DNA of 64,000 bases from Planctomycetota bacterium (GTDB lineage Bacteria; Planctomycetota; PLA2; JAEUHO01): the NCBI GenBank assembly GCA_965223505.1, contig CBDCWP010000043.1, forward strand, positions 64,001-128,000. Direction: 5' to 3'. This document shows positions 9,001-12,000 of this stretch, piece after piece (the stretch's first letter is position 1; the number at the start of each line of letters is the position of its first letter). The position numbers were made by a program.

Positions 9001-12000
9001 AGCGTGCGAAGAGGAACGTGCCGAACATGCCGCTCAGCGCGAAGCACCACCACGCCCAGTTCATCCAGATGCCGTGGTCGCGCACCCAGCCGGTGATCAC
9101 CAGCGGCGTGTCGGCGGCGAAGCTCGTCGCGACCATCGAGGTTCCGGCGATCCACCACGGCAGGCTGCGGCCGGTGAGGAAGAACTGATCGACGCTCTTG
9201 CTCGCCCGCTTCGAGAGGACCAGCCCGATCGTCAGGGCCAGGCCCAGGTAGGCGAAGATCACGAGCCAGTCGACGACATGGAGCTTCAACGGCTGCCTCT
9301 CCGGTTCCGCGGCGGGATCGCCCTGCCGGGCTAGGGTGTGTCGGAAAGCTCTCCGTCGCGAGGTCGGGGAGACCGAAGCGAGTCGAGGCTCGGACGAGCG
9401 GTTCTCGCCGGAGGCGGGCTCTGTGCCCGCTGAGGACGGGGTTCCGAGTTCGAGCCCGACGGAGCGAGAGAATCGCCGACCGCAGCAGGACGAGTTTCCA
9501 GACAGACCCTAGGATGCGGGACCCCGGGGACGCCGCGCAAACGGGCCCGCAGTGGAGACATCGATGTCGGTCCTTCGCAATGCCAGTGTGGCGCTTTGCC
9601 TGCTCGCGATCGCAGCGGCATGCGGCGAGTCGCCGGCCGGGAAGCAGCCCACGTCTTCGATCGAGCTGAACGCGGACACGTTTGCGGCCCTCCGCGACCA
9701 GATCCAACCGTCCGAGGCCGAGCGTGCGTGGCAGCAGATCGACTGGTATCCGTCCTACGCGGAGGGTCTGCAGGCGGCGTCGGTGCAGCAGAAGCCCGTG
9801 CTCCTGTGGGTGATGAACGGCCACCCGCTCGGCTGTACCTGAAACAACGGTGTCGCGGGCCGGCGGTCCGTGTGGTCGAACCCGGACGTGATCGAAACGG
9901 CGAAGCCGTTCGTGGCGGTCACCGACGAAGTCTGGCGACTGCAGCGCGGCACGGACGCGGAGTGCCGCCACTTTCAGAAGATGGCCGACCAGGGCCACTA
10001 CCGGGCCAAGGGCGGCACGCGCCAGGGCATCTACGTCCTCACGGCGAACGGAACGTTCCTCGCATCGGTCAACGCGCTCGACGCGGCGAAGGTGCTCGAG
10101 ACCATGGAGCAGGGACTCGCCGCGTGGGAAGAGACGTCCGCGGACGCGCGCACGCTCCCCGACGACTGGGACCTCCCGCGCCGCCGCTGGGAGTCGAGCT
10201 ATCCCGAGGACGGTCTGGTGCTGCGTACCCTCAACGCCGACCTCGGGCCGAACGCGGATCGCAAGCGTCTCAATCGCGACCACGTCTGGTTCACGGTCGG
10301 GGAGGCGCGTGGCTGGCTCGGTGCGGATCCGGCTGTCGGCGACGTCCACGAGGTCACGAAGACGATCGTCGAACGGCTCGCGCAGTTTCATCTCGTCGAC
10401 AACGTGCGCGGCCAGACGCTGCCGTTCGCGGCGGAAGAGACCGCGGGGTCCAGGATCACGACGACGGTGCGCTCGCGCGACGGCGACGTCGTGGCGTTCG
10501 GGATCGAGGGAACGACGACCGCGGAGACCGACGGCACGTGGAAGTTGGGCAAGAGCGACTGGACGCCCAAGGAGGCGTTCCCGCGCCGCGTCACGACGAA
10601 GCTGCTCGGCTCCGGCCGCTACGACCTGTCGTCGCGGCGCTTCACGGCGTTCGAGCTGGTCGCGGTGGGGGAGCGCGAGGGGCGGACGAACCTGAACGGG
10701 CGGCGCGACGACGACGTCGGGCCCGCCCCGATCGGGTTCTACTTCGAGCTCGCGCCGGATCGACCGGCGGAGCGCGTCGCGCCCGCGTTCGTCGACATCT
10801 ACGCGGACTGGGTCGTTGACCCGCGCTGACGACGCGCCGACGCCGCGGCGATACGCGTGCCCCAAGCTGGCGGCGCCGCTGCGGCTGACGGGACGCATGG
10901 ACGACCCGCAGTGGGAGCGCGTCCCGTGGACGGAGGACTTCGTCGACATCGAGGGCGACCGCAAGCCCACGCCGCGTCATCGCACGCGCGCCAAGATGTG
11001 CTGGGACGACACCTACTTCTACGTGGCCGCCCGGCTCGACGACCCGCACGTCTTCGCGACGCTGACCGAGAAGAACGCCGTCATCTTCCACGACCCCGAC
11101 TTCGAGATCTTCATCGACCCCGACGGCGACACGCGCCACTACTACGAGTTCGAGATCAACGCGCTCGGCACGATCTGGGAGCTGTACCTGGAGAAGACCT
11201 ACCGCGACGGCGGGCCTGTGCACGAGGGGTACAACCTCGACGGACTGCGGAGCGCGGTGCACGTCGACGGGACGATCAACGACCCGTCGGACGTCGACGG
11301 GGGCTGGTCCGTCGAGGTCGCGATCCCGTGGGAGGCGCTGCGCCTGTTCGCGCGCGAGATGCCCTGCCCGCCCGAGCCGGGCGACGAATGGCGTGTGAAC
11401 TTCTCACGCGTTCATTGGCGCTTCGAGATCGTCGACGGCGCGTATCGCAGGTTTCCGCGCGAGTCGCATCCCGAGGACAACTGGGTGTGGTCCCCCCAAG
11501 GGGTCGTCGACATGCACCGGCCAACGACCTGGGGCTACGTCACCTTCGAGGATCCTGGCGGCGTCAGTGGCGTAGGTGAATGATCGTCGCGAGGACGAAG
11601 AAGAGCGCCGCGAAGCCGCCGCAGAAGACGATCGCCAGGCCAAGTCGCGTGCCGGTTCCGAAGATGAGCAGGAACAGAGCGACGAGCAGCAGCAGGAATC
11701 CGAGTCCGAAGAACGTGAAGCGGATTGCCTCTCGCCGCCTGCTCCGACATCGACTCCTCTTCGTGTGGAGGAGTGTGACCGATTCCCACGGCGCCGTGCG
11801 CGGGTACCCCCTCGCGGCAACCGGCCCCTTCACGCTAGCATTCGTTTGTTGATGAACCTGCGTGCGCGTTTGGATTGGGGGAACCGCGATGGCAAAGAGC
11901 TTCAGCGCTGCCGAATGGAACAAGGTCAACACCGAGCTTCGACGGAACCCGAGCAAGTACGGGATTCCGGCTCGTGTCTACGGCTCCGTCGTCATGGCGT

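Follow-up and report, generated by a model that had tools for sequence, protein, structure and literature searches.

Relation to known thioredoxin-fold families

The known proteins closest to the one described here are the exported Thioredoxin_7/DsbD-gamma domains (3f9u, 1vrs_D, 2fwf) and DsbH (2ju5), which share its predicted fold and its compartment. The protein is encoded in a 64,000-nucleotide stretch of a Planctomycetota genome (contig CBDCWP010000043.1; hereafter the window, in whose coordinates all positions are given) and would carry selenocysteine (Sec) at residue 93. Superposition of its model with VIA-align over residues about 50-193 gives Z scores of 12.1 for 3f9u_B (rmsd 2.5 Å over 105 residues), 9.9 for 2ju5 and 8.9 for 1vrs_D, and the pattern KPxLLW...(active site)...F/W-S-D-P-x-V of the window family resembles the start of Pfam Thioredoxin_7. 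In contrast to DsbD-gamma and DsbH, the window family lacks a CxxC motif and appears to have Sec in place of the first Cys, Gly in place of the second and a Cys at position -2. Its loop before the helix is also longer (N-G-H-P-L-G), and a beta domain of 220 residues is fused to the thioredoxin fold. In Pfam, the best match is Thioredoxin_7 (PF13899) with 13.9 bits and E 0.061, under the gathering threshold of 27 bits; four of 23 family members match this model (E 0.012-0.063), none above the cut-off. A search of PDB sequences with the family profile returned 3ira only, at E 1.4.

The latter structure belongs, with 7tkv, to the Thioredox_DsbH/DUF255 proteins, in which a thioredoxin-like domain likewise forms the N-terminal part of a larger protein (VIA Z 9.8 and 9.1). 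Their second domain, which we take to be helical, is larger, different and not beta, and their sequence relation to the window family is not significant. The eukaryotic ER proteins AGR2, AGR3 and ERp18 (9i3u, 3ph9, 1sen) are also among the structural matches (Foldseek 3.0e-4, 1.8e-3 and 1.2e-3; VIA Z 10.8), but they lack both Sec and the second domain, so that the likeness is one of fold only; AGR2 works with a lone nucleophile (CxxS), in parallel to the U-x-x-G of the window family.

Thioredoxin-like selenoproteins have been described as well. Table 1 of PMC13188914 has rows for Sec.1 (CxU) and Sec.2 (UxC), both assigned to PF13192, and by these table rows they are thioredoxin-fold selenoproteins in which a single residue separates Cys from Sec, as in the window family, which shares the CxU spacing. 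The latter differs from both in being exported (as predicted), in having two domains and in tolerating loss of the Cys, and none of its 23 members matches PF13192 at E<=1. The VPGUxxT family (NF041382/NF041383; 'OS_HP5') is likewise a thioredoxin-like selenoprotein of roughly 350 aa, and NF041382 is the best NCBIfam match, found in one of 23 members with 11.9 bits and E 0.1 against a cut-off of 350. This match spans residues 35-98, ending near Sec; we took it to be at chance level and rejected membership, the window family having G-C-T-U and no VPGU motif.

The earlier note on this locus had claimed a family absent from the 2026 inventory of 119 prokaryotic selenoprotein families and from Pfam and NCBIfam, with no match at E<=0.01, and this holds for all three parts of the table, for Pfam-A and for NCBIfam 20.0. 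No row of the whole 119-family Table 1 of PMC13188914 has a U-N-N-G or G-C-T-U motif, and the NF, TIGR and PF models cited there gave no further match at E<=1 in a scan that covered those models, the cd and PTHR rows being compared by motif. The accessible parts of the literature, including BSepDB, deep-Sep and the Sargasso Sea paper, do not mention the motif or the family; it could still be among the 28 'candidate selenoproteins' left unnamed in the Sargasso Sea paper, or in Table S2 of BSepDB. We consider it probable that the family is undescribed in print or in Pfam/NCBIfam.

An exported two-domain protein interrupted by TGA

With TGA translated as Sec, positions 9564-10829 of the forward strand give 421 residues with a single internal TGA, and the following features can be placed:

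9564..10829, + strand: whole gene, 421 codons plus terminal TGA, presently called as two ORFs; extent from aligned full-length homologues
9564..9623, + strand: predicted signal peptide with a lipobox-like A-A-A-C20 at its end; putative lipoprotein signal, from sequence
9711..10148, + strand: predicted thioredoxin-fold domain (residues about 50-195), from VIA-align and Foldseek
9807..9851, + strand: active-site motif W-V-M-N-G-H-P-L-G-C-T-U-N-N-G (W82 to G96), from translation and alignments
9840..9842, + strand: predicted Sec-TGA (codon 93, U93), from translation and column conservation in homologues
10155..10826, + strand: predicted C-terminal beta-rich domain (residues 198-421), long antiparallel strands; domain model pLDDT 92.9, pTM 0.89
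10827..10829, + strand: true stop, likewise TGA, the only other stop in frame

Under translation table 11 the locus splits into a 96-aa ORF (9552-9842) and a 319-aa ORF (9870-10829) in the same frame, nine codons apart, in agreement with the proposal in the earlier note of one ORF joined by an in-frame TGA. Protein conservation runs through this 'intergenic' gap: an alignment of 23 sequences shows no change at N95, G96 or R100, and all four GGN codons are in use for Gly-96 among homologues while the residue itself does not change. The sequence of the downstream 319-aa piece does not begin with a separate signal peptide. At the start of the joined frame, a crude rule finds a hydrophobic signal in 22 of 23 aligned homologues, and the five closest homologues keep Cys followed by G-(G/D/E) at the lipobox-like site. 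By these features the product of 9564-10829 is predicted to be exported and is probably lipid-anchored.

An AlphaFold2 model built on the 23-row alignment (pLDDT 87.0, pTM 0.86) shows a compact fold that spans the TGA, with beta-1 before and helix-1 after it. After 3f9u_B, the next VIA-align matches are 2lst, 3ph9, 2ju5, 3ira and 7tkv; the top four Foldseek matches in the PDB range from 3.0e-4 to 8.7e-4 (3f9u_A, 3.4e-4), and all of them cover the N-terminal domain only, as had been reported for a first model. On the evidence of the model, the N-terminal domain has a Thioredoxin_7/DsbD-gamma/DsbH-like fold. For the C-terminal domain, Foldseek gives nothing at E<=1e-3 and a wide VIA search reaches at best Z 6.6, against outer-membrane and other small beta-barrels and below the level that the tool regards as meaningful; as modelled, this domain resembles no known structure clearly. 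The claimed architecture, an exported DsbD-gamma/DsbH-like domain fused to a beta-rich domain without clear relative, is the one that we also arrive at.

An active site outside the usual CxxC scheme

Within the 23-row alignment W82, G86, H87, U93, N95, G96 and R100 are invariant. The wider invariance first ascribed to the motif stands for the first six of these but not for C91, N94, M84 and N85: N94 is replaced by G in 30 of 80 genome-contig loci and by D in one Sec-containing member (L085), and distant paralogues differ at M84 and N85. Beyond the motif, Q154, D279-N280-x-R282, R341 and R380 also count among the invariant residues. All 23 members have Gly where a CxxC would have its second Cys, giving U-(N/G)-N-G. 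Cys91 is kept in 22 of the 23 and in 77 of 79 motif strings among those listed, and four members that have Sec carry another residue there (L in L035, A in L085, P in L116, S in L157), so that C-x-U, which had been put forward as the active site, appears to be the usual arrangement and not an obligatory one. In a weak HMM alignment (E 1.4) the Sec column falls on the first Cys of TCHWC in 3ira, and in the AlphaFold2 model Sec lies in a loop two residues before helix 95-104, within a block (residues 91-100) whose pLDDT is only 57. Both observations suggest that, relative to a CxxC, Sec may stand in for the first Cys and Gly for the second.

Contrary to the label 'orphan' in the earlier note, forms with Cys at the Sec column exist. 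Two are genomic loci (L080, C-N-C; L084, Q-A-C), and six are among the 15 uninterrupted full-length homologues within the best 150 cluster representatives (P0125, P0161, P0207, P0257, P0213 and P0193). TGA is nevertheless far more common, with 142 cases against 2 of Cys among the 150 phylum matches listed. Many TGA-free homologues have S, A, D, G or R at this column, some of them as ectodomains of kinases, which implies that the module can work without redox chemistry. In four Ser/Thr kinases (P0128, P0231, P0213, P0227) the Sec-less two-domain module forms the extracytoplasmic part, and in each a hydrophobic segment lies between it and the kinase.

Possible function

The following sequence of events could account for these features. 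SelB and tRNA-Sec would decode UGA-93 as Sec, guided by an in-gene hairpin 18 nt downstream. Within a fold of the Thioredoxin_7/DsbD-gamma type, the selenol would then lie at the start of helix 1, where CxxC oxidoreductases have their attacking cysteine, and U93 could attack an oxidised periplasmic substrate such as a disulfide or a peroxide. Where present, as in most members, Cys91 might resolve the adduct as a C-x-U selenylsulfide, which a periplasmic reductant would recycle, and the C-terminal beta domain may bind the substrate or a partner. The word 'selenoenzyme', used for the family before, is something that we infer. Redox catalysis by the selenol seems fairly likely to us, and a resolving role for Cys91 plausible though somewhat doubtful. 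Towards the explanation as a whole, an exported two-domain selenoprotein that obtains its Sec by way of the hairpin and acts as a periplasmic selenol redox enzyme, we lean slightly.

Two other readings of the same active site are unlikely, each to a similar degree. In the first, the selenol acts alone, in the manner of a peroxidase or sulfoxide reductase (compare GPx, monothiol thioredoxin-fold proteins and the AGR2-like CxxS), with external reductants, a dispensable Cys91 and a beta domain that holds a hydrophobic or lipid substrate. The retention of Sec in the four members that have lost Cys91 would fit this, as would the Gly at the second CxxC position, the presence of the single-Cys thioredoxin-fold proteins AGR2 and AGR3 among the best structural matches and the strong bias for Sec over Cys, which is expected of chemistry where Sec resists over-oxidation. 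The weak C-terminal matches are moreover small barrels, some of which bind ligands (avidin-like, 2fr2, 4tq2; Z<=6.6), but these fall under the tool's meaningful level. Against a lone selenol, Cys91 is retained in the great majority of members, and there is no sequence relation to GPx or Prx, with no Pfam match to them at E<=1 in 23 members.

In the second reading, Sec93 and His87, usually with Cys91, serve as ligands for a metal, a metalloid or a small molecule, and the protein is a periplasmic binding protein, chaperone or sensor. The invariant His87 yields an H-x3-C-x-U cluster, the placement of the Sec-less module outside four Ser/Thr kinases looks like use as a sensor, and Sco-type copper proteins provide a precedent for a thioredoxin fold with Cys and His ligands. 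PMC13188914 puts at about 20% the share of selenoprotein families with a predicted role in binding atoms or moieties, metals making up about 70% of these, which we also counted in favour. However, the Sec column of the kinase-fused forms is occupied by D, S, C or A, so that they lack a common ligand set, Cys91 is variable, and a comparison of neighbourhoods found no metal-transport or resistance genes conserved near the family loci. That comparison gave no conserved gene neighbour that might point to a pathway, the best non-self cluster being present in 11 of 81 loci; the neighbours in the window encode an SSF transporter, a CBM9-like protein and an EEP-family protein.

Going beyond the selenol redox enzyme that we favour, it is conceivable, though we hold it only tentatively and think it rather improbable, that the family constitutes a near-obligate class of Sec enzymes, in which a lone-selenol thioredoxin domain is joined, as a new periplasmic module, to a beta domain of a fold without solved relative and which occurs in about a third of planctomycete genomes and in marine Marinimicrobia. 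Its chemistry would be one that Cys supports poorly, for example one in which the barrel holds a peroxide or reactive small molecule that is then reduced, and the Sec-less module would have been recruited as an outward sensor of receptor Ser/Thr kinases.

UGA-93 as a probable Sec codon

Several lines of evidence indicate that 9564-10829 is very probably a genuine selenoprotein gene. The host genome has selA, selB, selD and tRNA-Sec, all above curated cut-offs (tRNA-Sec, 69.2 bits). The host selD itself contains one TGA. In the order PLA2, selA is present in 38 of 40 genomes, and a search of these genomes at E<=1e-5 gives 28 matches in 19 of them, 25 with exactly one in-frame TGA and three with none; conservation of the UGA across the order, claimed before, thus holds for 25 of 28 matches. 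When the two weaker rows are dropped, the counts are those given before for E<=1e-10 (17 genomes, 26 matches, 24 with and two without TGA). In a sample of 401 genomes from the phylum, 133 have the family, and among the 150 matches listed from them 142 have the TGA at the same codon; TGA stands at the Sec column in 79 of 80 genome-contig loci. The column is held even where identity falls to 24-26%, and the protein is conserved on both flanks, which places the position of the TGA beyond chance. By our own reading of two listings, selA occurs in 128 of the 133 family-positive genomes, compared with 290 in the full sample of 401; of the five family-positive genomes without selA, two (G176, G327) carry solely TGA-free variants. 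In another genome (G017) the family copy lacks the Sec domain and selA gives no match; gene decay after loss of the Sec trait was considered here and rejected because selB and tRNA-Sec are still there.

Downstream of the UGA lies a candidate for the element that would direct Sec insertion:

9854..9872, + strand: SECIS-like hairpin beginning 18 nt downstream of the UGA; stem of 7 bp, 9854-9860 paired to 9866-9872, closing the loop CGGCG at 9861-9865; -9.6 kcal/mol

The bSECIS model asks for a stem of 4-16 bp, a loop of 3-9 nt with G in its first two positions, a distance of 16-37 nt from the UGA and an MFE <= -7.5 kcal/mol (PMC13188914), and the hairpin agrees with all four (7 bp; 5-nt loop with G at position 2; 18 nt; -9.6 kcal/mol). 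Taken alone this means little in DNA as GC-rich as this. Overall folding energy of the 48 nt after the UGA is no better than when synonymous codons are shuffled, the mean z being -0.26 and p<=0.05 being reached in 1 of 24, and the first 86-nt fold has z -0.51. We therefore rejected overall RNA stability as evidence for a SECIS. Across 24 sequences, 77.4% of cells are paired, a level that none of 500 shuffles attains (63.7%), both sides change in six of seven pairs and covariation is 0.466 versus <=0.236 when the register is slid; with 107 sequences the values are 74.6% versus 69.5% for pairing and 0.274 versus 0.185 for covariation (0 of 500; slid, <=0.184), figures for which the shuffle control ignores relatedness and to which protein constraint could contribute, the paired columns lying in codons. 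One clade (L033, L040-L044) has no such hairpin and instead a shifted one with a GGUC loop, in which covariation is absent. The alternative registers at columns 19-26/31-38 (GGUC loop) and 18-25/31-38 were rejected, their covariation not being above shuffles, and an Rfam scan of 9700-10000 at E<=10 returned chance miRNA and sRNA rows only. Of the features that mark a bacterial selenoprotein, we thus find a conserved UGA, the Sec machinery, Cys homologues and a bSECIS-like stem-loop.

That the annotation is correct and TGA-93 terminates, leaving two separate genes or a pseudogene with a nonsense mutation, is very improbable: gene callers split the locus, the 120 listed database proteins almost all correspond to the C-terminal piece and the real stop is TGA too, but the TGA column is maintained across the phylum and in Marinimicrobia, invariant residues lie inside the supposed gap, homologues have Cys at the Sec column, and a single compact predicted fold spans the TGA while the downstream piece lacks a signal peptide. 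Read-through without Sec, by near-cognate insertion of Trp or Cys or by a lineage-wide change of code, can be dismissed with similar assurance, since TGA ends the window gene and many homologues, which speaks against a code change, the genome has the complete Sec machinery, presence of the family tracks selA, and homologues substitute Cys, with Trp in none of the 15 uninterrupted ones; the sole Trp is in P0102 (404 aa), most likely from a gene caller reading TGA as Trp.

Distribution and database record

The family is very large and mostly planctomycete and marine: a profile search retrieves 3,500 clusters at 50% identity, 2,283 of them at E<=1e-10. One homologue, P0100, comes by its source name from Phycisphaerae bacterium RAS1. 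Its public record consists almost only of a headless 'hypothetical protein' of about 320 aa, and nearly all of the 120 database proteins listed are the C-terminal piece of roughly 283-358 aa. The earlier note had also placed the family, by a short DNA signature, in several other phyla. This is borne out for Marinimicrobia/Neomarinimicrobiota, the only solid second phylum, where whole genes with the TGA column kept occur in at least eight named records, but not for the remainder, which comes down to one doubtful record each labelled 'Armatimonadetes' and 'Saprospirales', the latter being identical to a marine MAG without classification (L104) except for 1 base in 48.

Recognition of the family would be a large addition to the prokaryotic selenoproteome; thousands of gene models would be corrected, and the known selenium demand of Planctomycetota and marine Marinimicrobia would rise. 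Its presumed active site, U-x-x-G on a thioredoxin fold with an optional Cys at -2, falls outside the usual CxxC, CxxU and UxxC schemes, and the Sec-free copies on receptor kinases may offer a second handle on what the module recognises. Should the reading as a near-obligate Sec class with a kinase sensor be true, these bacteria would have a periplasmic signal, redox or ligand, that has gone unrecognised and of which the family is the marker.

Finally, a search for read-through homologues with residues 36-125 returned only P0122 and the window's own C-terminal piece, P0002 (E 1.6e-3). P0122 is a secretin ORF from upstream that continues into the gene and stops at ...GCT before the TGA.

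The split gene and its TGA codon

When TGA is read as selenocysteine (Sec), window 9564-10829 (+ strand) translates as a single frame of 421 residues. Under table 11, the same DNA gives a 96-aa ORF that ends at the internal TGA and, 9 codons on in the same frame, a 319-aa ORF; the terminal stop is a second TGA. The internal codon sits within the motif W-V-M-N-G-H-P-L-G-C-T-U-N-N-G, and the elements that bear on its decoding are as follows:

Window 9840-9842, + strand: internal TGA, codon 93, the sole in-frame TGA before the terminal stop
Window 9854-9860 paired with 9866-9872, + strand: hairpin stem of 7 bp with loop CGGCG, starting 18 nt past the UGA, -9.6 kcal/mol
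G000:C43:10939-11033 (G000 being the genome with the window): tRNA-Sec, 69.2 bits, on the contig that holds the window, about 53 kb ahead of the window
G000:C8:36851-39232: selA and selD, adjacent on contig C8

In the stretch that separates the TGA from the annotated start of the downstream ORF, N95, G96 and R100 are invariant in a 23-row alignment, and all four GGN codons are used for Gly-96 among homologues, which places the conservation at the protein level. This is a real, mis-annotated selenoprotein gene, and we have little doubt that its product is a genuine selenoprotein. The database names seen for the family are all 'hypothetical protein'. In one database entry of the family, the 404-aa P0102, Trp occupies precisely the Sec column (A-C-V-W-N-N-G), in all likelihood a TGA that the gene caller took as Trp.

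The counts that the earlier note gave for the order PLA2 (26 matches in 17 of 40 genomes, 24 with the TGA and 2 without) were reproduced once two rows weaker than 1e-10 were dropped. At E<=1e-5, 19 of the 40 genomes have 28 matches between them. A single in-frame TGA is present in 25 of these; the three without one are two end-of-contig fragments and a copy in genome G017. That copy (L037, G017:C138) keeps the C-terminal 300 residues, with no recognisable N-terminal Sec domain upstream in any frame; selB and tRNA-Sec are present in G017, and selA gave no match. Across 401 genomes sampled from the Planctomycetota, a profile of 23 re-joined homologues matched 133 (83 of 243 high-quality genomes, 91 of 287 genera), and the in-frame TGA is present in 142 of the 150 matches listed and absent in 8. 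A one-genome-per-species scan returned 312 relatives, 80 of which were kept; 79 of these carry the TGA in the pattern G-H-P-(L/F/M)-(G/A)-C-T-U-(N/G)-N-G, which left only L141 unplaced. Cys occupies the Sec column in two of the phylum matches that lack the TGA (L080, A-C-N-C; L084, G-Q-A-C). Of the 3,500 cluster representatives, the best 150 include 15 homologues that are uninterrupted through the site, with Cys in six, Ser in three, Ala and Asp in two each, and Arg and Gly in one each. Judged from these sequences, the family displays the Sec/Cys exchange that the classical test looks for.

G000 encodes selA, selB, selD and tRNA-Sec, and its selD has one in-frame TGA of its own (G-G-U-A-A-K). 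Family presence tracks the Sec trait: selA occurs in 128 of 133 family-positive genomes vs. 290 of 401 overall (two printed lists compared by eye), which we take as support rather than as a statistic because related genomes are not independent. Of the five family-positive genomes lacking selA, two (G176 and G327) have no variant with the TGA.

A SECIS-like hairpin follows the UGA

The hairpin falls within all four limits that the bacterial SECIS model sets, namely a stem of 4-16 bp, a loop of 3-9 nt with G in the first two bases, a spacing of 16-37 nt and an MFE <= -7.5 kcal/mol (PMC13188914). In 24 sequences, 77.4% of cells are paired vs. 63.7% after shuffling (reached by 0 of 500 shuffles), covariation is 0.466 vs. 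at most 0.236 with partners slid, and both sides change in six of the seven pairs. In 107 sequences, pairing is 74.6% vs. 69.5% (again 0 of 500 shuffles) and covariation 0.274 vs. 0.185 shuffled and at most 0.184 slid. Since the paired columns are also codon positions, protein constraints may contribute to this signal. In this GC-rich DNA, synonymous-codon shuffles fold as well as the region after the UGA (mean z -0.26), and in one clade (L033, L040-L044) the hairpin is shifted, has a GGUC loop and shows no covariation. The window holds a second split selenoprotein gene, TlpA-like (14720-15742, + strand; motif ...LFSTT-U-G-P-C...), whose hairpin resembles this one (6-bp stem, CGGGC loop, 20 nt past its UGA).

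Fold, active site and possible function

A crude rule finds an N-terminal signal peptide in 22 of 23 homologues. In the window protein and its closest homologues, five in all, the signal ends with Cys followed by G-(G/D/E), which suggests that they are putative lipoproteins. The AlphaFold2 model built on the 23-row alignment has a pLDDT of 87.0 (only 57 across the active-site block, residues 91-100) and a pTM of 0.86, and residues 50-195 are predicted to form a thioredoxin fold. VIA-align of this segment finds 3f9u_B as best match (Z 12.1, rmsd 2.5 A, 105 residues), followed by 2lst, AGR3, DsbH, 3ira, 7tkv and DsbD-gamma; the top four Foldseek matches of the domain lie at 3.0e-4 to 8.7e-4. No curated Pfam or NCBIfam sequence model reaches threshold in the window protein: Thioredoxin_7 scores 13.9 bits vs. 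a cut-off of 27 (seen in 4 of 23 members) and NF041382 11.9 bits vs. 350 (1 of 23). Modelled alone, the C-terminal domain (pLDDT 92.9, pTM 0.89) lacks a convincing solved relative, Foldseek giving no match at E<=1e-3 and VIA a best Z of 6.6 to assorted small beta-barrels.

Because Sec93 stands two residues ahead of the modelled helix 95-104, and is aligned to the first Cys of T-C-H-W-C in 3ira, the sole and weak PDB sequence match (E 1.4), the active site is read as a U-x-x-G version of C-x-x-C that has an additional Cys at -2. The data show a Sec-decoded, exported protein of thioredoxin fold with its selenol at the attacking position, and we lean towards redox catalysis as its role. In this reading, an oxidised substrate in the periplasm would be attacked by the selenol, and Cys91, in members that have it, would resolve the adduct by forming a selenylsulfide. 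A periplasmic reductant would recycle the active site, and the beta domain may bind substrate or partner. The Cys at -2 is absent in four Sec-containing members (L035, L085, L116, L157), and L086 has a Cys at -4. A dispensable Cys and the strong bias to Sec would both fit a peroxidase-type mechanism with a lone selenol, which we regard as rather unlikely.

The two-domain module also occurs without Sec, at the C-terminal end of four Ser/Thr kinases of 812-1541 aa (database proteins P0128, P0231, P0213 and P0227), with D, S, C or A at the Sec column. In the three sequences read (P0231, P0213, P0227), a hydrophobic span separates kinase from module, so that the module is predicted to face outward; P0128 has Kelch repeats as well. 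Such kinase-ectodomain relatives speak for a ligand- or metal-binding role through H87, C91 and U93, to which we likewise give a low probability next to redox catalysis.

Relation to catalogued selenoproteins

The earlier note held the family to be absent from the 2026 inventory of 119 prokaryotic families, and this is borne out: its motif is in no row of Table 1, which lists 119 families and subfamilies, in the 'Prokaryotic selenoproteins' section of PMC13188914. The NCBIfam, TIGR and Pfam models cited there do not match, in a comparison that leaves aside cd- and PTHR-defined rows. Full-text literature searches returned no description of the family, nor is it mentioned in the main-text passages of the BSepDB, deep-Sep and Sargasso Sea papers. 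The CxU spacing itself is not new, because a thioredoxin-like selenoprotein with it, Sec.1 (PF13192), is already listed (PMC13188914). The family is very large and unlisted in the catalogues checked, and it stands out by an unusual second domain and an unusual arrangement of the active site.

Genomic context and spread

Family loci share no conserved neighbour gene. The window gene is flanked by genes for an SSF transporter, a CBM9-like protein and an EEP-family protein:

Window 10816-11583, + strand: CBM9-like ORF of 255 aa (PF06452 at E 1.4e-13), its start overlapping the selenoprotein stop by 14 nt

Given this overlap, co-transcription of the two genes is possible; other loci do not keep the pairing. 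Several copies per genome are frequent (as many as four matches). In L079/L085 (G343:C321) and L082/L086 (G250:C37), Sec-containing and Sec-free copies share a contig at a distance of a few kb. Both G343 copies are extended at the N-terminus by a long stretch that continues the open frame. Genome G030 has a tandem of two divergent Sec-containing paralogues (L047, G030:C42:48768-52592; 24-25% identity to the window protein), a third, closer copy 30 kb off (G030:C42:81391-82635) and a fourth on contig C55.

Beyond the Planctomycetota, at least eight records titled Marinimicrobia or Neomarinimicrobia, one a single-cell assembly, hold whole genes with 42-48% identity. One record labelled 'Armatimonadetes' and one labelled 'Saprospirales' are isolated finds. 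The latter label is doubtful and the 2.3-kb contig (L105) may be mis-binned, since over the 48 bases that follow the TGA it has one difference from L104, of an unclassified marine MAG ('bacterium MED-G177'). L038 (G032:C6) is a different long protein, 535 aa and still open where the locus ends, that may represent a further thioredoxin-like selenoprotein not yet listed. Its N-terminal stretch shares 33% identity with query residues 36-167, and its in-frame TGA, in ...D-D-T-R-C-U-V-F-A-G..., places Cys and Sec side by side.
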